In this document: positions 3,498-50,561 of the stretch, piece by piece
Layout: each line of letters begins with the position of its first letter
How positions within the stretch are numbered: position 1 is the stretch's first letter
Assembly (NCBI GenBank): GCA_018056375.1
Contig: JAGPFQ010000001.1
Span: forward strand, 360,340 to 424,339
Reading direction: 5' to 3'
Source: Candidatus Dojkabacteria bacterium
GTDB taxonomy: Bacteria > Patescibacteriota > Dojkabacteria > SC72
Length of the DNA stretch: 64,000 nucleotides
Position numbers and translations under genes: made by a program
Notes under the pieces: model-generated
Told to the model about the DNA's origin: nothing
Database searches by the model: none
Seen by the model: only the letters and a program-made list of their open reading frames with translations

Positions 3498-4508
3498 TTA
3501 TTTATGTGGACATGGCGGATATCCAGTAATAACTGCAATACCTATTCGCTCATTAGTATTCTGGTCTTTGACTATTATTCTTGTTCCTGGTTCATACAAA
3601 GCAGGACCTCCAAGCATTATAAACTTTCTTACCTCTATCTCAGCAACTTCTCCTGGCTTGATAGGTTTTGATATTACAGGAGTACCATTTCCTGTTATAA
3701 ATGGTTTCCCTGAAGGGTCTGCATCTTTAGGCATAAAAGTAAGAAGATAACCTTGACCATTCACAACAGATGTCTCTTTTGTATTTCCTTCTTCCTTTGT
3801 AAACACATACACCTTAAGTTTTACTTTAGTAGCCAATTGCATATCTGTACCAAAGGTTGCTCGTTTGTAGAAATAATCATTATCCATAGCAATACCAACT
3901 GACTCTGACACAGTTGCAGAATTTACCAACTTTCCTGCCTTAATCATTCTCCTTACTTTGGTTGAGACATCAGGTACTATCCCACAAATACCTGTTTGTT
4001 TAAGAGTATCTCCAACTTTAAGTGTTCCCCTTCTCACTGTTACTGTTAAATATTTTGTACCATTAATTGTAATAGTCTCTTTTGAATCTATAATTACACT
4101 CGTAGCATCAGGAGTCCATAAACTTTCAACTTGTTGTCGTGGAGGTACTATCTTTGGAGGTGGTAAGGCCTCAAATACAGGTGTCTTAGATTCTGATGAA
4201 GGAGTACTAGATGATGAGTCTTCGGAGGGTATGGATGGTGTTGTTGTTTTGCTTGATTCTGGTGTTGATTCTTCTATATCCTCTTCTACATTCTCTTCCC
4301 CCTCTAATAACCCATCTAAATCTTCTTCATCCTCCAACTCTGAAACAATCTTCTCTTCTCCTTGATCCTGCTTTATATCACTATTTCTATTCTTTCTTAC
4401 ATAGAGAAAGACAGAGAAGATAAGGATGAGAAATACTAAGAAAACAAGCAGAACTATCTGCTTTTTATCTAAAGAAAGTTTCTTTGTATTATTACTTTCT
4501 TCTTTCAT
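3498..4508 (-). CDS. Membrane-anchored protein: N-terminal TM helix, acidic/Ser-Thr-Pro-rich low-complexity linker, C-terminal beta-rich domain of unknown function
   Basis: Hydrophobic segment LVFLVFLILIFSVFLYV followed by EDEEDLDGLLEGEENVEEDIEESTPESSKTTTPSIPSEDSSSSTPSSES, then a non-repetitive globular C-terminus. Confidence 0.55.
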   Translation of the reverse strand: MKEESNNTKKLSLDKKQIVLLVFLVFLILIFSVFLYVRKNRNSDIKQDQGEEKIVSELEDEEDLDGLLEGEENVEEDIEESTPESSKTTTPSIPSEDSSSSTPSSESKTPVFEALPPPKIVPPRQQVESLWTPDATSVIIDSKETITINGTKYLTVTVRRGTLKVGDTLKQTGICGIVPDVSTKVRRMIKAGKLVNSATVSESVGIAMDNDYFYKRATFGTDMQLATKVKLKVYVFTKEEGNTKETSVVNGQGYLLTFMPKDADPSGKPFITGNGTPVISKPIKPGEVAEIEVRKFIMLGGPALYEPGTRIIVKDQNTNERIGIAVITGYPPCPHK

Positions 4509-4895
4509 ATTTATTTATGTAAAAAGTTATATATAACCTTCACTATTATTTAAGTATATCAATTTAGGGAAATACGAACAATATTAAAAGAAAGAAACCC
4601 TACTCAAACTAAACAACATACGAAATACCGTATACTGATTTTTATTGTTTTTTCGGGTTCTGTGTGTTGTGTTGTTTTACTTTTTTTGTGTTTTTTGTAT
4701 CAGTTTTTCAATGAGGAATGTTATAACATCCCTCAAAGGAAAACACAGTAACAATATCAATAGTGGCAACACTATTATAAGACACTCCATAATTCCTCCT
4801 TTCAAAAGATCATCAACACACATCTATATTATATCACAACAAACACTACAGGTCTCTTCAATAATTCTTCCCATATAAAATGATATAATCAAATA

Positions 4896-5519
4896 ATGAA
4901 AACTGATTTCAAAACTCTCAAAGATCTACATGAATACTATGCTGTAAACAATAACTGTGGATTAAAAGAAACAGCTACCCAACCAGTATATGAAATAACT
5001 CCCCCATCATCTGGAATACTCTTCATAGGTGAAGCTCCTGGTAAACATGAAGATTTACAAGGTAGACCATTTGTAGGTTCTGCTGGTAAATTCTTAGATG
5101 AACTATTACAAAGTATTGGATATACAAGAGAAGAGGTATATGTTAGTAATATTGTTAAATACAGACCTCCTTCTAACAGAGATCCACAAGATGATGAAAA
5201 GAATGCATGTAGGGTATGGCTGAATGCAGAACTAGTGTTTGTAAAACCTAAGGTAATTGTAACATTAGGAAGACATGCATTAGGTAGGTTTGTACCAGGT
5301 GCAAGTATTACAGCTTCTCATGGACAATCATTTGAACATCCAACAGGTATTCCAATATTTGCTATGTATCATCCTGCAGCTGCACTCTACAATCCTAATC
5401 TAAAAGAAGATATGAAGAAGGATTTTAAAGCATTGAAGAAATTTCTATCTACTCTTCCTAAAAAGAAAATAAATATATTAGAAAAGCAAGAGGTTATAGA
5501 TGAGATATTGAAGTTATAA
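4896..5519 (+). CDS. udg: Uracil-DNA glycosylase, family 4
   Basis: Motif A GILFIGEAPGKHEDLQGRPFVGSAGKFLDELL (GEAPG...PFVG.AG) and the C-terminal H-containing motif B region are typical of family 4 UDG. Confidence 0.85.
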   Translation: MKTDFKTLKDLHEYYAVNNNCGLKETATQPVYEITPPSSGILFIGEAPGKHEDLQGRPFVGSAGKFLDELLQSIGYTREEVYVSNIVKYRPPSNRDPQDDEKNACRVWLNAELVFVKPKVIVTLGRHALGRFVPGASITASHGQSFEHPTGIPIFAMYHPAAALYNPNLKEDMKKDFKALKKFLSTLPKKKINILEKQEVIDEILKL

Positions 5520-5527
5520 AACAGACC

Positions 5528-5580
5528 TTGTCAATTATATTGACAAATAACTTGACAATTATTTTACATATCCGTATAAT
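5528..5580 (+). promoter_or_regulatory. Perfect 19-bp palindrome TTGTCAATtatATTGACAA (5528-5546), then consensus sigma70-like TTGACA (5552-5557), 17-bp spacer and TATAAT (5575-5580) immediately upstream of the Fic ATG (5586)
   Basis: Read directly from sequence: cttgtcaattatattgacaaataacttgacaattattttacatatccgtataatggattATG. Confidence 0.5.
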
Positions 5581-5585
5581 GGATT

Positions 5586-6599
5586 ATGGAAAATACAAAA
5601 TATAAATACTATTTAAGTGATAAAATCTTAAAAAACATCTCTTCAATTGAAAGACTATATGGTCAATTAGAATCACAAGTTATCCCAAAAGAATTACTCC
5701 TTAATTTAGAAAAACAAAACCTTATCAAATCTTCCTTCTCTTCAAATAGCATAGAGGGTAACTCTCTTTCAAAAGGTGAAGTTACAAACTTAATCTTAGG
5801 TGACAGAGTACCTGCTAATAGAGATGAAAAAGAAGTAAGGAACTATTTTGATATCCTCCAAAAGATTGGGAAAGAATATGTAAATCTTAATACAGATACC
5901 ATACTTAAAATCCACAGAGAACTACTGAAAGGTGTTAACAATCAGATTGGTGGAGAGATTCGAAATAAAAGAGTTATTGTAGGAAACCCATTACAAGATG
6001 GAAATGTAATAATCAAACATGAACCACCAAAACATGATAAAAAAGGAATAACAGAAATGCTTGAACTATTAGTAGAATGGACTAAATCTTCTAACGAACT
6101 TCCAATAATAAAGGCAGGAATATATCATCATGAATTTGTATATATCCACCCTTTCATAGATGGAAATGGTAGAACTTCAAGACTAACAACTACACTACTT
6201 CTACACAAATTAGGATACAAGATTAATAAGTACTTCATACTTGATGATTACTACGATATAGACAGAATTATGTACTCTGATTCTTTACATTCTGCAGATA
6301 CTGGAGATAAAACAATATGGTTAGAATACTTTACAGATGGAGTTAAATATTCATTACAATCAGCATTAGCAAAAATCGAAGAGGGACTAAAGAACATTTC
6401 TTTTAATATGAGACCTACAAAAAGAGAAAATGATGTTTTAGAATTGGTAAAGAAATACAAAGAGATTACATCATCTGATGTTTCTAAAGAATTAAATATA
6501 TCTAGACAACAAGCTTTTAATCTTTTAGATAATTTAATCACAAAGGGATATTTAGAGAAACAAGGTAGCACTAAGAATAGTTTTTACATATTAAAATAA
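5586..6599 (+). CDS. fic: Fic-family protein (AMPylator/adenylyltransferase fold), class II with an N-terminal inhibitory SxxxEG motif and a C-terminal winged-helix DNA-binding domain
   Basis: Fic motif HPFIDGNGRTSRL; upstream inhibitory-helix-like SNSIEGN ([S/T]xxxE[G/N]); C-terminal VLELVKKYKEITSSDVSKELNISRQQAFNLLDNLITKGYLEK resembles a wHTH. Confidence 0.85.
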   Translation: MENTKYKYYLSDKILKNISSIERLYGQLESQVIPKELLLNLEKQNLIKSSFSSNSIEGNSLSKGEVTNLILGDRVPANRDEKEVRNYFDILQKIGKEYVNLNTDTILKIHRELLKGVNNQIGGEIRNKRVIVGNPLQDGNVIIKHEPPKHDKKGITEMLELLVEWTKSSNELPIIKAGIYHHEFVYIHPFIDGNGRTSRLTTTLLLHKLGYKINKYFILDDYYDIDRIMYSDSLHSADTGDKTIWLEYFTDGVKYSLQSALAKIEEGLKNISFNMRPTKRENDVLELVKKYKEITSSDVSKELNISRQQAFNLLDNLITKGYLEKQGSTKNSFYILK

Positions 6600-6611
6600 G
6601 TTTTTAATATT

Positions 6612-7136
6612 ATGACAGAAGCTATATACAAAAGAGATTGGGTTGATGGAGAAGAGATCTTAGAAGAACACAAAGAATATGATGTTAGACAAGTAACATG
6701 CTTTGTATTCTCAAGTGATAACAAACTACTTTTAGTTGCAAAAGAATCTGATGACTGGACTATTACAGCAGGACATTATGAAGAAAAAGATAAAACTTTC
6801 AAAGATGGTGTTATCAGAGAGGTATTAGAAGAATCAGGTTTAGATATTTCTAAATACAAAGAAGATATTGATATATTTGGATATGCTCTTGTAACAAAGA
6901 TTGATAAAGAAAGTGAAAAGGTTTTAGATAGATTTATCCAAATGAGAATGTTTCTTAAACTAGAAGATTTAAAAGCAAAGGATATTGAATTAAAACCTAT
7001 GGAAGAATTTGAGATTAAATATGCTCAGTTCTGTAGCATAGAAGAAGCCTTTGAAAAGGTAAAATGGTTAGAACAATCTGATGAGTGGAAAGCTATTAAG
7101 CCTACCTACTTCCCCTTACTCCACTCTGCATCATAG
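6612..7136 (+). CDS. Nudix hydrolase
   Basis: Nudix box GHYEEKDKTFKDGVIREVLEESGL (G-x5-E-x7-REVxEExGL pattern); 13 bp downstream of fic. Confidence 0.7.
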   Translation: MTEAIYKRDWVDGEEILEEHKEYDVRQVTCFVFSSDNKLLLVAKESDDWTITAGHYEEKDKTFKDGVIREVLEESGLDISKYKEDIDIFGYALVTKIDKESEKVLDRFIQMRMFLKLEDLKAKDIELKPMEEFEIKYAQFCSIEEAFEKVKWLEQSDEWKAIKPTYFPLLHSAS

Positions 7137-7717
7137 AAGATCTTCTCAACACCAGTCTCATAATCATTACATATCTCACTCTCCTTAAACCATATCTTTA
7201 ATTCTCTCTCTGCATTCTCTACTGAATCAGAAGCATGTAACATGGTCATAGTAGACCTATCTAAAAAGTCTGCAAGAGCATATGTATCCAGTGAGTAGTC
7301 ATCTCTAATAGTACCAATATCACCATCTGCTGGACTAGCACTACCTAAAATCTTTCTAACCTGAGATATTACTCCAAAACCTTCAAATACAATAGCTACA
7401 ATTGGACCACATGTAAGATAGTTAATATTCCTCTGTCTAATCTTCTTACCTTGTTCTAATGAATTCCAGTTACTAATATCCTCACCTCTTGCAATAGCTC
7501 CCTTCTTAGCCTTCTCACCTGTCTCAATTAAATACCCTTCTTCATTAATATAGTGTTCACCTACTTGCTCCTTAGTTGCATTAAGCATCTTAATAGCAGT
7601 CATCTTAATACCCTTCCTCTCAAATCTAGACAGTATCTCACCTACTAACTGCCTTTGTAAAACATCAGGTTTAAGTAACACCAATGTTCTCTCTTGTGCC
7701 ATTTTTGGTTTTTTCAT
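7106..7717 (-). CDS. ndk: Nucleoside diphosphate kinase with a ~50-aa internal insertion
   Basis: ERTLVLLKPDVLQRQLVGEILSRFERKGIKMTAIKM...GPIVAIVFEG...MLHASDSVENAERELKIWF, including the catalytic His region NxxHxSD. 203 aa versus ~140-150 usual. The start may be Met at 7702. Confidence 0.85.
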   Translation of the reverse strand: MKKPKMAQERTLVLLKPDVLQRQLVGEILSRFERKGIKMTAIKMLNATKEQVGEHYINEEGYLIETGEKAKKGAIARGEDISNWNSLEQGKKIRQRNINYLTCGPIVAIVFEGFGVISQVRKILGSASPADGDIGTIRDDYSLDTYALADFLDRSTMTMLHASDSVENAERELKIWFKESEICNDYETGVEKIFYDAEWSKGK

Positions 7718-7763: not shown

Positions 7764-9407
7764 ATGAAGAAAAATACAGATAGAACAAAAGAAATTTTCT
7801 TAGACATTGCTTCTCTGAAAAAGTGGGATGAGAACAAATCCTTAAACAAGATTCTTAGAAACTACAAAAAAGATAATGGGTCAATATGTCGCATTGATGA
7901 GCTTGTAAAGATGTTTGAGCAAGTAAAGAAAGATTTTTCAAAAACAGATATATCTCTAATTGAAAAGAGAATTAGATTAAGACCTACTAGAACTAATTCA
8001 GGTGTAGCTGTTGTTACAGTTATGACTATGCCCTATTACTGTCCTGGTAACTGTATATTCTGCCCTAATGATAGAAGTATGCCCAAGAGCTATATTGCTT
8101 CAGAACCCGGTGCACAAAGAGCATTAAAATTAAAGTTTGATCCGTATGCACAGGTGTATAACAGGTTGGTTGCATTAAAACATATTGGTCATAATATTGA
8201 GAAGGTTGAGTTAATTATCCTAGGTGGTACATTCTCTGCATATGATGGTAACTACAAGATATGGTTTGTAAAAGAGTGCTTTAGAGCATTAAACAGAGTT
8301 AAGAAGAGTACAAAGGAATATATCCAACCAAGAGAGTTTGCAATGGAAAAGACTGATTGGGAAGATTTAGAAAAGGAGCAGATTAAGAATGAAACATCTT
8401 ATTGTAGAAATGTGGGATTAGTTCTTGAAACAAGACCTGACTTTATCACAGTTGGAGAGTTAATGTATTTAAGAAGACTTGGTGCTACAAAGATACAGAT
8501 TGGTATTCAATCTCTTTCAGACAAGGTATTGAGAGAGAATCAAACTGGAAGAGACAATGAAGATACAAAGAAGGCTTGTGAATTGTTAAGAATGTTTGGC
8601 TTTAAGATACATGGTCATTGGATGCCTAACCTCTATCTCTCTACACCTAAGCTAGATATCTCTGGATACAAAGAATTGTTTACAGAAGCATATCACCCTG
8701 ATGAGATGAAGATTTACCCTACTTCAGTAATTGAAGGTACTGAGTTGTATGACCTTTACAAAGAAGGTAAACACAAACCATATGATGAGAAGACATTGAT
8801 AAGGGTTGTTGGTGAGTGTATTGCTTCTACTCCTAGATATTGTAGACTATCCAGAGTAATTAGGGATATTCCATCTAATGAGATTGCAGCAGGAAACAAA
8901 AAAACTAATCTTAGAGAGGTTGTTGAGGAGTATTTAAGAAAGAAAGGGATTGAATCAGAAGATATTAGAAGTAGAGAGATTAAGGGTGAAGAAATTTCTA
9001 AGAATGATATTAAGTTAGAGAAAATTACATACAAGAGTACTGTAGGTACAGATATATTCATTTCATACAAGACTAAGAAGAGTGATAAGATATGTGGATT
9101 TTTGAGATTGTTTTTACCTAAGAAGGTATTAAGTAAAAAGCATAGATTAGAAGAACTACAAAACACTTCGATCATTAGAGAGGTACATGTTTATGGTAAG
9201 GTTGTAGGGATAGATAGAGAGAGTAAACAAGGAGAATCTCAACACTTAGGATTAGGTAAGGAGTTGATAAAGATAGCGGAAGATATGTCCAAAAAGAAAG
9301 GTTGTGAGAAAATTTCTGTTATATCTGCTATTGGAACTAGAGAGTATTACAAGAAGTTAGGATACAAGAGAGGTGAGTTGTATATGTACAAAACCTACAA
9401 GAACTAA
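7764..9407 (+). CDS. elp3: Elp3-family radical SAM + GNAT protein (tRNA uridine-34 modification enzyme homologue)
   Basis: Radical-SAM cluster motif YYCPGNCIFCPN (CxxxCxxC variant spacing C-x4-C-x2-C); ~547 aa; C-terminal GNAT-like segment EVHVYGKVVGIDRESKQGESQHLGLGKELIKIAEDMSKKKGCEKISVISAIGTREYYKKLGY. Confidence 0.75.
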   Translation: MKKNTDRTKEIFLDIASLKKWDENKSLNKILRNYKKDNGSICRIDELVKMFEQVKKDFSKTDISLIEKRIRLRPTRTNSGVAVVTVMTMPYYCPGNCIFCPNDRSMPKSYIASEPGAQRALKLKFDPYAQVYNRLVALKHIGHNIEKVELIILGGTFSAYDGNYKIWFVKECFRALNRVKKSTKEYIQPREFAMEKTDWEDLEKEQIKNETSYCRNVGLVLETRPDFITVGELMYLRRLGATKIQIGIQSLSDKVLRENQTGRDNEDTKKACELLRMFGFKIHGHWMPNLYLSTPKLDISGYKELFTEAYHPDEMKIYPTSVIEGTELYDLYKEGKHKPYDEKTLIRVVGECIASTPRYCRLSRVIRDIPSNEIAAGNKKTNLREVVEEYLRKKGIESEDIRSREIKGEEISKNDIKLEKITYKSTVGTDIFISYKTKKSDKICGFLRLFLPKKVLSKKHRLEELQNTSIIREVHVYGKVVGIDRESKQGESQHLGLGKELIKIAEDMSKKKGCEKISVISAIGTREYYKKLGYKRGELYMYKTYKN

Positions 9408-9446
9408 TAGACCTCATTAGCAATTTTCTAATCTTACTATGAAAAA

Positions 9447-9519
9447 TGGGTGCACAGGGACTCGAACCCTGAACCAAACGATTAAGAGTCGTTTGCTCTA
9501 CCGATTGAGCTATGCACCC
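9447..9519 (-). tRNA. tRNA-Lys (anticodon CUU); no encoded CCA
   Basis: Manual fold: acceptor GGGTGCA/TGCACCC, D-stem GCTC/GAGC, anticodon stem AACGA/TCGTT with loop CTCTTAA (U33, anticodon CTT, A37), T-stem CAGGG/CCCTG with loop TTCGAGT, discriminator A. Confidence 0.85.
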
Positions 9520-9562
9520 ATAAACAGAGAGATTATAATAATAAATAGAGTTTTTTTCAACA

Positions 9563-14426: not shown

Positions 14427-15576
14427 AGATTTCTGTAAGATAGTTAGTAAAATTAATTAAGAAACTCTCTTCATTAAAAGTCTGCGCATGCTCTATAATC
14501 TCTTTCTCATTATACCCCCTTTTATTATAATTCTTAAGTAACTGTACCAATTCTTCTTCGTTCATGAAAAACTCCCCAGTCACACCCTTCTTTACAGTCT
14601 CCAATACACCACCATATCCGTACGCAAATATTGGTGTCCCACTCGCCATCGCTTCAACTGGTACTAAACCAAAATCTTCAATCCCACAAAAGAGCAAAAC
14701 CTTAGCCATACTATACAATGCTTGAACTTCTTCATCCTTAATGAATCCTAAAAACTGTATATTTTTATACCCTCTTGCAACTTTTTCTAAATATCTTCTA
14801 TCAGGACCCTCCCCTACAATTACTAAATTATCTCCACTTTCAATACATGATCGTATTGCCCAATCCACTCTCTTGTAGTCATATAGCCTTGAAACAACTA
14901 AAACAAAATCTTCAGGAATGAAAAATTTCTCCTTGGTATCTTTAATAAATCTTTCACCTTCCTTCGTTTCTTTTAATTGTTTAAAATATTTCTCTTCTAC
15001 ACCTGGATATATTACTCGTGCATCTACTCCATATGTCTTCTTTATCTTCTGTGCAATGAATTTTGAATTTGCACTCCAATAGTCAACTCTTTTAGCAATA
15101 CTAACATCCCAAACTCTAAGGTATGTGTTAAGAATATGGGAGAGAGGCTTGTAAAGCCATTTTAGTGTAGATCCCCTTACATTCAATTCATTATCCCAAA
15201 GACTTCTAGGTGGTGTCATAACCATAGCTAGGTGTGGTTGGTCTACTCCTGTAATCACTGACTTGGCTGGACCTGCTGATATACTAATTACTAAATCATA
15301 TCCCCTTAAATCGAATCCTTCATATGCAAAAGGATTTAATACTTTAAGATGTCTATGGAATTTCTTCCCAAACACCTTAACCCACTTTTGTACAAATGAT
15401 GTATATACTTTGTTTTTCAGAGTTGGATATTTCTCTTTGTAGAAAAGAACTGTATATATATCTGCATCTGGGAATACTTTCAACATTGAATACATCTCCC
15501 TATCTGCACCACCAAAGGATGTCATCTGGTCTGCTACAACTGCTACCTTGGGAAATTTGTTGTGTAGATTATACAT
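14395..15576 (-). CDS. Glycosyltransferase family 4 (paralogue of the previous gene)
   Basis: EDFGLVPVEAMASGTPIFAYGYGGVLETV; similar overall layout to the neighbouring gene. Confidence 0.8.
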   Translation of the reverse strand: MYNLHNKFPKVAVVADQMTSFGGADREMYSMLKVFPDADIYTVLFYKEKYPTLKNKVYTSFVQKWVKVFGKKFHRHLKVLNPFAYEGFDLRGYDLVISISAGPAKSVITGVDQPHLAMVMTPPRSLWDNELNVRGSTLKWLYKPLSHILNTYLRVWDVSIAKRVDYWSANSKFIAQKIKKTYGVDARVIYPGVEEKYFKQLKETKEGERFIKDTKEKFFIPEDFVLVVSRLYDYKRVDWAIRSCIESGDNLVIVGEGPDRRYLEKVARGYKNIQFLGFIKDEEVQALYSMAKVLLFCGIEDFGLVPVEAMASGTPIFAYGYGGVLETVKKGVTGEFFMNEEELVQLLKNYNKRGYNEKEIIEHAQTFNEESFLINFTNYLTEIYEKERTRRQG

Positions 15577-15621
15577 GCGATATTATACCTTAGAAGAATG
15601 GTAAAGGCATCTGTTGTATAA

Positions 15622-49305: not shown

Positions 49306-50526
49306 CTATTCTTCTAAAAGAAAGTCTATAATATTCTTGAACTTAATACCATTCTCTGACATTACAAAATTCACATCCATTGAAAGAACAACTTTCTCAT
49401 AATGGTCTTTAATACTCTGTAATGCAGACATCTCTCTCTCTTTTACACTTTTATCCAACAGTGATTCTGTAACTTGGAAATATATTTTCTCATCAGGTTT
49501 AGTTGCAACAAAATCGACTTCTTTACTACCAACTTTACCTATGGAAACTTTGTATCCTCTTCTAAGAAGTTCTAGATATACTACATTTTCTAATATATGC
49601 CCTCTATCTACATCTCTATATCCCAACAACATATTCCTTATACCAGTATCTACTATGTAATATTTTTGTAATGTTTTTAAGTATTCTTTTCCTTTAATAT
49701 CATAACGAGAGACAGGGTAGAAAATGAAAGCCTTTTCCAATGCTGATATGTAACTAAGAACAGTAGAGTGTCCAGTCCCCTTCTTTTCATCTTCAACATA
49801 TTCTTTGTTACTGGAAAGATAGTTGGATATATTCCTAGCTGAAATGAAACTACCTATGTTATCAGAAAGGTACAATACTATATTTCTAAGAAGTTTCTCA
49901 TTTCCAAAGTTATTCCTCTCTATTACATCCTTTAACATGGCAGTTGAATATATACCCTCCAACATTGTATATGTTCCAACTTCATTAAACTCATACTCAC
50001 TAACTGCAGGCATACCACCATACTTTAGAAAAAGATCAAAATTCTCTCTACTACTTTCTAAGTTATTAAAATCTAAGAACTCTTTGTATGACAATGGTAA
50101 CATTTTTATCTCAACATACCTTCCAGAAAGAAATGTAGAAAGCTCTGATGAGAGTAGATATGCATTAGAACCAGTTATGTATATATCTACATCTGAATCT
50201 ATATTCAAAGAGTTTACAGCTTTTTCCCAATTTTTCACTACCTGTATTTCATCGAGAAGAAGATAGACTGTTCCTTTTGTTTTCTTTATTCTTTCTTTAA
50301 TGTAATCATACAAATCAGTACTATCAACAATATTTCTAAACTCTTCTAATTCAAAATTTATTTGAACTATATTCTTTGCATCTGCATTACATTCTTTTAG
50401 TAAATATTCTTTAAAAAGTTCTAATAATGCTGATTTACCACACCTTCTAACACCAGTTATTACCTTAATCTGGCTTTTATCTTTAAATACTATTAGTTTT
50501 TTAAGATATTCATCTCTATTTTTCAT
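49306..50526 (-). CDS. AAA+ ATPase of the AAA_14/DUF4143 family
   Basis: Walker A ITGVRRCGKSALL; Walker B YLLLDEIQ; ~400 aa with C-terminal DUF4143-like region (restriction-endonuclease-like fold in homologues). Confidence 0.75.
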   Translation of the reverse strand: MKNRDEYLKKLIVFKDKSQIKVITGVRRCGKSALLELFKEYLLKECNADAKNIVQINFELEEFRNIVDSTDLYDYIKERIKKTKGTVYLLLDEIQVVKNWEKAVNSLNIDSDVDIYITGSNAYLLSSELSTFLSGRYVEIKMLPLSYKEFLDFNNLESSRENFDLFLKYGGMPAVSEYEFNEVGTYTMLEGIYSTAMLKDVIERNNFGNEKLLRNIVLYLSDNIGSFISARNISNYLSSNKEYVEDEKKGTGHSTVLSYISALEKAFIFYPVSRYDIKGKEYLKTLQKYYIVDTGIRNMLLGYRDVDRGHILENVVYLELLRRGYKVSIGKVGSKEVDFVATKPDEKIYFQVTESLLDKSVKEREMSALQSIKDHYEKVVLSMDVNFVMSENGIKFKNIIDFLLEE

Positions 50527-50561
50527 ACTGTATTATACAAAAAAATGAAAAATACGTCAAC

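Follow-up and report, generated by a model that had tools for sequence, protein, structure and literature searches.

The stretch of DNA dealt with here (the window) comprises 64,000 nucleotides of Candidatus Dojkabacteria bacterium (contig JAGPFQ010000001.1 of assembly GCA_018056375.1, positions 360,340 to 424,339), and all coordinates refer to positions in it. On its forward strand it contains a gene, fic in the following, for a protein of the Fic enzyme family with a C-terminal winged helix. Immediately before its start codon, 58 bp (5528-5585) would constitute a single compact regulatory unit, in which a consensus sigma-70-type promoter is embedded in a set of three 12-bp direct repeats; the Fic protein itself probably occupies these repeats and thereby restrains its own synthesis. 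The features of the locus are listed below, with the repeat units numbered from 1 to 3 toward the gene.

5528-5539, + strand: putative operator unit 1, TTGTCAATTATA, core TTGTCAA at 5528-5534; from the sequence, a 12-bp-phased unit being kept here in orthologues
5540-5551, + strand: putative operator unit 2, TTGACAAATAAC, core TTGACAA at 5540-5546
5552-5563, + strand: putative operator unit 3, TTGACAATTATT, with the -35 hexamer TTGACA at its beginning (5552-5557)
5558-5574, + strand: promoter spacer, 17 bp
5575-5580, + strand: -10 hexamer TATAAT, from promoter scan and consensus match
5586-5588, + strand: start codon ATG and predicted transcription start (leaderless mRNA), the -10 hexamer ending 5 nt upstream
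5586-6599, + strand: gene of a SoFic-like class II Fic enzyme, 337 amino acids, with C-terminal winged helix, from Pfam, PADLOC, AlphaFold2, and Foldseek
5742-5759, + strand: auto-inhibitory motif S53-N-S-I-E57-G58, fitting (S/T)xxxE(G/N), from the sequence
6147-6182, + strand: catalytic Fic motif H188-PFIDGNGRTS-R199, HPFIDGNGRTSR, residues 188-199, fitting HPFx(D/E)GN(G/K)R
6420-6593, + strand: winged helix-turn-helix domain, residues 279-336, from the AlphaFold2 secondary structure
6504-6542, + strand: predicted recognition helix, residues 307-319 (RQQAFNLL...), from the AlphaFold2 model

Elements of the Upstream Region

The promoter consists of TTGACA (5552-5557), a spacer of 17 bp, and TATAAT (5575-5580), exactly as had been proposed in an earlier reading of the letters alone (the sequence-only reading), and it is conserved base for base in relatives. 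A 12/12 match with a 17-bp spacer occurs a single time in the window, where 0.10 would be expected, and is the top match of the promoter scan. The distance of 5 nt between the -10 hexamer and the start codon was likewise read correctly, with GGATT lying between TATAAT and the ATG at 5586.

Upstream of this promoter, the sequence-only reading had placed a perfect palindrome of 19 bp, conceived as an operator for a dimer of the Fic protein. Sequence and position of this element are as described; it is, however, an interrupted inverted repeat of the 8+3+8 type rather than a strict palindrome, with the arms TTGTCAAT (5528-5535) and ATTGACAA (5539-5546) pairing perfectly over 8 bp around the 3-nt centre tat. 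It spans 5528-5546, is formed by units 1 and 2 together, and is specific to the window. Five perfect 8+3+8 inverted repeats are present in the window, compared with 2.26 +/- 1.5 in shuffled sequences, and the palindrome by itself is not exceptional. In close relatives the corresponding sequence is TTGTCAATTAnnTTGTCAATTAnnTTGACAATT, in which the first two units both read TTGTCAA and so form a direct repeat, and in more distant ones it is (TTGACAATTAAC)x3, from which it follows that the units are arranged head to tail and flanked asymmetrically, by TTA on the 3' side. The perfect palindrome of the window came about because the central base is T in unit 1 and A in unit 2, and because the linker by chance reads TTATA. 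From these comparisons, the conserved element is to be regarded as three 12-bp direct repeats of the consensus TTGWCAATTAnn, beginning at 5528, 5540, and 5552, and not as a palindrome, even if the core heptamer TTGWCAA is palindromic by itself. A palindromic operator bound by a symmetric dimer is consequently not borne out, since the palindrome is restricted to this genome. Nor does the operator lie merely upstream of the promoter, as had been claimed, given that the last unit is the -35 hexamer and that, in 7 of 34 promoters, a unit is located inside the spacer.

It is the phasing that sets the array apart from its surroundings. Three TTGWCAA cores at an exact 12-bp phase would be expected about 1e-6 times per window and were found in none of 300 shuffles; TTGACAA is present in twelve copies in the window, including the cores of the array. 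The phased two-unit pattern, with at most one mismatch allowed, is found in the window at this site only (0.16 expected). A degenerate fourth unit, TTTACAT, is seen in the spacer at 5563-5569.

An inverted repeat of 11 nt (5560-5570 and 5585-5595; TATTTTACATA and TATGGAAAATA; 10 of 11 positions complementary) flanks the -10 box on both sides and extends over the start codon. It was considered as a second operator and dismissed; its downstream arm is coding and differs among close relatives, and it is probably incidental.

Conservation of the Repeat Array

Orthologous loci were collected through genome contigs and exact-protein look-ups on the basis of protein similarity alone (the protein-derived set). 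Homologues stem from assemblies labelled Candidatus Dojkabacteria, Woesebacteria, Saccharibacteria, or Patescibacteria, and their names by themselves place the window in the Patescibacteria (CPR). With proteins that are 53-98% identical, the array is present in all 17 distinct promoter regions of this set. The design is that of two to four TTKWCAA-centred units with a period of 12 bp, a TTGACA unit at a distance of 17 bp from a TATAAT-like -10 box, and a start codon 5-6 nt past that box.

When the window is compared with orthologues of about 80% identity, the 58 upstream bases are identical to an extent of 0.84-0.95, whereas fourfold-degenerate sites reach 0.48-0.57; constraint on the element thus exceeds that on silent sites. 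The comparison with locus L002 gives 0.31, because an indel of 3 nt shifts the ungapped frame. Between -158 and -59, the mean identity over all pairs of close orthologues drops to about 0.29, which is the random level, and homology starts essentially at the first repeat. Within the element, the spacer varies among the more distant orthologues, whereas in those of about 80% identity it is near-invariant apart from single bases that differ here and there.

Protein-derived and pattern-found loci together provide a pooled set of 35 distinct promoters. Exactly three phased units are present in 33 of them, the copy number ranging from 2 to 5, and the unit consensus is T-T-G-W-C-A-A-T-T-A-w-c. A repeat unit serves as the -35 box in 34 of the 35; the remaining promoter (L147) is an artefact of start-codon detection and, inspected by eye, has the same TTGACA-17-TATAAT layout. 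Among the 34, the spacer is 17 bp long in 32, the -10 box reads TATAAT in 24, and the gap from there to the start codon amounts to 5-6 nt in 29. In seven promoters the array is slid by one unit, with the middle unit acting as the -35 box and the last unit lying within the 17-bp spacer. The central base of the core is A in all 34 units that act as -35 box, while in the remaining units it is either A (41) or T (28). This pattern would fit a binding protein that is blind to that position and a sigma subunit that reads it.

A blind scan of a metagenome collection with the pattern TTGWCAATTANNTTGWCAATTANNTTGACAATT yielded 33 loci, and in 23 of these a fic orthologue follows on the same strand at a distance of 26-63 bp. 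In L144, the contig ends just after a fic-like start. The rest is made up of one locus resembling a decayed cassette (L143), four satellite-like arrays, and four other contexts, namely L149, L138, and the pair L139/L156. Around fic itself, the neighbours found in the window, that is, the genes of the uracil-DNA glycosylase, the NUDIX protein, the nucleoside diphosphate kinase, and the Elp3-like protein, are beside the gene in no other locus examined. The unit of operator, promoter, and gene is, by sequence comparison, the only one common to these loci, and the linkage of the phased promoter to fic is in this sense exclusive.

Several of the individual loci deserve description. In L143, at about 740-800 on the reverse strand (contig Ga0116171_10058009), the triple repeat is intact, the -10 box behind it is degraded, and the fic-like start is interrupted by a stop codon (TTGTTAAATACATAAAG...); this looks like a decayed cassette in which the operator has outlasted the gene. 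In L138 (3994-4026) and L139 (2595-2627, equal to L156), triple TTGACAATTAnn arrays are found on contigs of small phage-like open reading frames (ORFs) that are devoid of fic, and the third unit of the array in L139 shares its last bases with an ATG. These arrays could be unrelated operators with a similar core, or the Fic winged helix could be involved, with the arrays as its targets or mimics. In L141 (1600-2010; contig Ga0247611_10032556), L133, L146, and L160, 12-mers such as CTTGACAATTAA/CTTGATAATTAT and TTGACAATTACA are repeated many times over in long satellite-like arrays, with fic not nearby. In L014-L017 (contig DAHWPJ010000002.1 and others), fic is flanked by genes for an Xre-type helix-turn-helix protein, a serine recombinase, and TraG/DUF87-like proteins, which suggests that it is carried there on an integrative or conjugative element. 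The variable genomic neighbourhoods are suggestive, though only suggestive, of a mobile defence gene.

Viral contigs were searched in three ways. A triplet of TTGACAA cores with a period of 12 bp and unconstrained linkers was found at 93 loci, all of them unrelated coding or satellite repeats and none with fic, a pattern that is too loose to inform. The specific two-unit pattern gave 10 loci, again none with fic, which corresponds to a background rate only, and a protein-profile search for Fic relatives in these contigs returned no matches. Distant plasmid homologues are 27-29% identical; in the single upstream region inspected, from Klebsiella, there are no obvious repeats, and these homologues are too distant to inform.

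Start of the Transcript

Because the -10 hexamer ends 5 nt before the ATG, a start of transcription 6-7 nt past that hexamer lands on the A of the start codon. No Shine-Dalgarno sequence precedes the fic ATG, and there is no room for a ribosome-binding site. Transcription would most likely begin at or next to the A of the ATG and give rise to a leaderless mRNA. Of the earlier proposal of a leaderless or very short leader, the geometry is thus upheld by the 5-nt gap in the window and its counterparts in the pooled promoters, the transcription start itself being a prediction. In the orthologues, the start codon, as read by eye, is GTG in L140, L147, and L159 and ATG elsewhere; the first base is therefore always a purine, as expected of a +1 nucleotide.

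A Shine-Dalgarno-like sequence is found for about 7 of the 55 ORFs of the window, and TATAAT is located 5-6 nt before the ATG of three further genes, that is, the uracil-DNA glycosylase gene at 4896 (+ strand; region 4870-4898) and the genes at 15576 (- strand; region 15576-15600) and 50526 (- strand; region 50526-50560), the last being preceded by TTGACG-17-TATAAT. From the scarcity of Shine-Dalgarno sequences and these three TATAAT-ATG genes together, leaderless expression is apparently a habit of the genome and not a peculiarity of fic, and it may be common in this member of the Patescibacteria. Elsewhere in the window, TTGAAA-17-TATAAT (9532-9560, - strand) ends 12 nt upstream of a tRNA-Lys gene (9446-9520, - strand) and is the second good candidate for a promoter of the sigma-70 type, which suggests that sigma-70-type promoters are in use in this organism.

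The Fic Protein

The product of the gene matches the Pfam family Fic with an E value of 2e-19 and, at residues 283-333, the winged-helix families MarR_2 and TrmB. It also matches the PADLOC SoFic profile PDLC03963 (E 1.1e-49; residues 12-335 against profile positions 23-350 of 361). The NCBIfam SoFic equivalog NF046030 scores 49.2 bits, far short of its cut-off of 550, from which it follows that the protein is a distant relative of SoFic of Shewanella oneidensis and not its orthologue. The inhibitory motif SNSIEG at residues 53-58 is N-terminally located, and the enzyme therefore belongs to class II. Among 33 orthologues, S53, N54, E57, G58, and N59 of this region are invariant, as are H188, F190, D192, G193, N194, G195, R196, and R199 in the catalytic motif. 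On these grounds, the protein is classified as a SoFic-like class II Fic AMP-transferase with a C-terminal winged helix, the activity being predicted.

The AlphaFold2 model (predicted local distance difference test score 85) comprises the Fic core followed by a winged helix with three helices (279-291, 296-303, and 307-319) and two strands (323-326 and 333-336), so that the C-terminal winged-helix domain put forward in the sequence-only reading is corroborated by the model as well as by the MarR_2/TrmB matches. In the third helix, which is the predicted recognition helix, R307, Q308, Q309, and N312 are invariant across 33 orthologues that have the TTGWCAA core in common, and so is the wing residue K330. 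At the N-terminus, a helix with conserved hydrophobic positions is predicted at residues 12-30 in this single-chain model. Foldseek provided full-length alignments of the model with 4rgl, CbFic2 (8cil), a mycobacterial Fic protein (7cb8), SoFic (3eqx), and CccR (7xux). A literature search for a paper on PDB entry 8UQU found none.

A Paralogue Family with a Second Motif

Additional information comes from a family of paralogues. In L158 (3380-4936; metagenome contig Ga0182027_10001748), two divergent Fic-winged-helix genes are situated about 500 bp apart, with products that are 60% and 32% identical to the window protein; the second of these has 344 amino acids. Each of the two promoters has its own triple direct repeat, one being TTGACAATTAAC x3 and the other AWTCGACTA x3. 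The 32%-identical family is common in Microgenomates-type Patescibacteria, and its promoters are of the type TTGCAA-17-TATAAT, with three direct repeats of 11-bp period in the spacer and around the -10 box. Within this family, AATCGACTA repeats go along with a helix of the sequence ...RAKATRTQDFKKL... (...ATRTQDF...) in L158, L165, and L166, while AATCGTCTA repeats go along with ...RA(K/R)ATRALDF(Q/K)KL... (...ATRALDF...) in L162/163, L164, and L167. The exchange of TCGACT for TCGTCT thus follows that of TQ for AL in the recognition helix, and the variable residues fall in the segment that is aligned with the predicted recognition helix of the window protein. Such co-change of helix and repeat is the pattern expected if each protein reads the repeats of its own promoter.

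Proposed Autoregulation and Alternative Explanations

In the proposed mechanism, RNA polymerase would use the near-ideal promoter for synthesis of a leaderless fic message, and the Fic-winged-helix protein formed from it would bind to the three repeats and block the -35 region. As the promoter-proximal repeat is the -35 hexamer, or in some orthologues lies in the spacer, binding would compete with RNA polymerase, and this competition would establish a negative feedback by which a potentially toxic enzyme is kept at a low and steady level; deregulated members of the Fic enzyme family are toxic. With the repeats placed over the -35 box or the spacer, and the promoter having the consensus sequence already, repression is a better fit than activation, and a unit in the spacer can hardly be reconciled with an effect other than interference with RNA polymerase. 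By analogy with its homologues, we infer that the winged helix binds DNA and that repression is the effect. That the gene's own winged helix is responsible is supported by the array following the gene through unrelated neighbourhoods.

We regard as probable this account, in which a SoFic-like gene is repressed by the winged helix of its own product, acting on three repeats, and the transcript is leaderless. Of the autorepression envisaged in the sequence-only reading, self-regulation is retained as the most economical explanation, considering that the cis element travels with the gene, that helix and repeats change together in the paralogues, and that CccR and SoFic provide precedents, while the symmetric dimer on a palindrome is given up. 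Several points weigh against autoregulation of this kind. Binding of the Fic protein and repression at this promoter, albeit most likely, are predictions, as is any stoichiometry of the binding. The repeats are direct, and clearly non-palindromic in the paralogue family, whereas the solved Fic-winged-helix proteins are two-fold symmetric dimers, and three sites would make an awkward stoichiometry for a dimer. The relative CccR binds an inverted repeat (PMC9755527), and another one, CbFic2, binds DNA without apparent sequence specificity (PMC10628234). Triple TTGACAATTA arrays are also present in a few loci that lack fic, for example, L138 and L139. The link between helix and repeat in the paralogues goes back to essentially one evolutionary split, with few independent changes. 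Finally, the pattern-found loci in the sample of 35 promoters are not independent proof of the repeats, for which the protein-derived set alone makes the case.

The repeats might be the operator of a different regulator, either of the host or encoded by a phage. A gene for a 155-amino acid Xre-type helix-turn-helix protein located directly upstream of fic in L014-L017 would be a candidate, and the few triple arrays on phage-like contigs without fic (L138, L139/L156) would agree with such a role; yet no second gene is conserved beside fic across the loci, the array accompanies the gene across assemblies labelled Dojkabacteria, Woesebacteria, and Saccharibacteria, and among the paralogues, the repeat and the recognition helix of the Fic protein itself change in concert, so that a foreign regulator is considered unlikely. 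It is also conceivable that -35-like hexamers were duplicated by slippage during replication and either recruit RNA polymerase or hitchhike in a mobile promoter cassette. The core is indeed the -35 consensus plus one A, the copy number ranges from 2 to 5, the array is able to slide by one unit relative to the -10 box, and viral contigs commonly contain unrelated tandem repeats of 12 bp that include TTGACAA. Such an origin is nevertheless distinctly improbable, in view of distal units that often read TTGTCAA, a poorer -35 box, and still keep TTG, CAA, and the flanking TTA, of three units in 33 of the 35 promoters despite fourfold-degenerate sites near saturation, and of paralogue repeats (TCGACT or TCGTCT) that do not resemble a -35 box and are sited in the spacer and around the -10 box.

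The sense of the regulation might be reversed, with the Fic-winged-helix protein binding the repeats and activating, or DNA might mainly be an allosteric platform by which the AMP-transferase activity is switched. Sites overlapping the -35 box can serve class II activators. For the relative CbFic2, it has been reported that DNA stimulates (de)AMPylation (PMC10628234). A promoter that already matches the consensus in 12 of 12 positions, with an optimal spacer of 17 bp, would have no need of an activator, however, some orthologues have a unit within the spacer, and the characterized relative CccR represses (PMC9755527), all of which renders activation, or a mainly allosteric use of the DNA in place of repression, very unlikely; an allosteric role as such would be compatible with repression and may exist beside it. 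Of all the explanations, the one with least credit is that the palindrome at 5528-5546 is the terminator hairpin of the upstream uracil-DNA glycosylase gene. It lies 9 nt past the stop codon of that gene (at 5519) and could form a stem of 8 bp. Its RNA fold is weak (-6.5 kcal/mol, z -1.8), with 11 of 200 shuffles folding as well, a U-tract is missing, and the terminator scan did not report the site; moreover, palindrome and upstream gene are both missing in relatives in which the repeats persist. The terminator was rejected on these grounds.

Autoregulation by the Fic protein can be extended to a more far-reaching proposal, which we consider possible but doubtful. In Patescibacteria, Fic-winged-helix proteins would bind head-to-tail on three direct repeats, unlike the symmetric dimer of CccR, the 58-bp operator-promoter together with the gene would be a minimal and self-contained defence cassette that is mobile by horizontal transfer, occupancy of the repeats would both set the level of the AMP-transferase and gate its activity, and the correspondence of helix and repeat (TQ with TCGACT, AL with TCGTCT) would be a readable code.

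Comparison with Known Fic Proteins

CccR of Yersinia pseudotuberculosis (7XUX) is a Fic enzyme with C-terminal helix-turn-helix domain that represses its own promoter, as determined by DNase I footprint, gel shift, and lacZ fusion (PMC9755527). It aligns with the model of the window protein over about 350 columns at a sequence identity of about 20%. Both are Fic enzymes with a C-terminal helix-turn-helix domain and both have repeated sites in their own core promoter, which in the case of CccR are near the -35 and -10 boxes. The operator of CccR consists of inverted 10-mers, AGATAATCAT-N26-ATGATAATCT, and is fitted to a back-to-back dimer, whereas the window gene has three direct repeats of 12 bp, with the -35 hexamer as part of the array. 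An arrangement of two inverted 10-mers about 26 bp apart was not found at this locus; the repeats are 12-bp direct ones here and 11-bp non-palindromic ones in the paralogues. Further differences are the predicted leaderless message, the lineage, and the role of CccR as a type VI secretion effector, of which there is no hint here.

Dimeric SoFic of S. oneidensis (3EQX) binds the 100 bp upstream of its own gene in a dimer-dependent manner (bioRxiv 10.64898/2026.07.09.737422). The window protein has in common with SoFic the N-terminal helix, the class II Fic core with inhibitory glutamate, and the C-terminal winged helix. For SoFic there is no published binding motif, while here a repeat motif is defined. 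SoFic represents an anti-phage defence family (PADLOC PDLC03963); a defence role of the clade to which the window protein belongs would be conjectural. CbFic2 of Coxiella burnetii (8CIL) binds DNA largely through its helix-turn-helix domain (PMC10628234). It is a Fic enzyme with winged helix as well and gave the second-best full-length structural match. In contrast to the specific conserved repeat in the promoter of the window gene, CbFic2 binds random DNA with high affinity, and its catalysis is stimulated by DNA (PMC10628234).

The gene for the lambda cI repressor, transcribed from PRM, is a well-known case of a leaderless, autoregulated repressor gene. In the case of fic, too, the promoter of the putative regulator is overlapped by its candidate operator sites, and the message is predicted to start at the AUG. 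The protein families are unrelated, the lambda operators are palindromic, and the regulator of the present locus is fused to an enzyme.

In analogy to CccR and presumably SoFic, the window protein is predicted to be a Fic enzyme that is at the same time the repressor of its own gene. The regulatory principle is already known, the operator geometry differs, and the gain is incremental. Fic enzymes with C-terminal winged helix are widespread, and an operator is defined for only one of them, CccR, and not for SoFic. The locus and its relatives provide a testable motif, TTGWCAATTAnn x3 in 12-bp phase, to which the paralogue family adds a second motif and two residues of the recognition helix as candidate determinants of specificity. 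To judge from the direct-repeat layout, not all such enzymes bind DNA in the way CccR does. In addition, the locus cleanly illustrates the combination of a consensus promoter and an apparently leaderless message, in a genome of the Patescibacteria in which Shine-Dalgarno sequences are rarely used.

Neighbouring Genes

In the window, fic is flanked upstream by the promoter region of 66 bp and downstream by a NUDIX gene (6612-7136, + strand), which starts 12 bp after the fic stop codon and may be cotranscribed. This gene was considered as an antitoxin-like partner, in analogy to the small AS1 gene described downstream of an E. coli Sofic, and was rejected, as it is not kept beside fic in other loci. 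NUDIX genes located within about 1 kb of fic in L115 and L116 are on the opposite strand and without detectable similarity to that of the window. Across the loci, no small antitoxin ORF is conserved beside fic, of the kind that a type II toxin-antitoxin system (Phd/Doc-like or VbhA/VbhT-like) would possess.

In L003, L004, and L006-L009, which carry orthologues of about 80% identity, the first 45 bp or so after the fic stop codon contain a conserved imperfect hairpin, GTTTCCAAAGGATACG...CGTATGTTATAGAAAC, that may be a terminator; this hairpin is absent from the window. The NUDIX gene and the nucleoside diphosphate kinase gene (7106-7717, - strand) are convergent and overlap by 31 bp (7106-7136). 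Beyond them, an Elp3-like protein of 547 amino acids with radical SAM, Radical_SAM_C, and GNAT domains is encoded at 7764-9407 (+ strand). On the other side of fic, at 3498-4508 (- strand), there is an ORF of 336 amino acids without Pfam match, the product of which has an N-terminal hydrophobic segment and an acidic, serine-rich region of low complexity.

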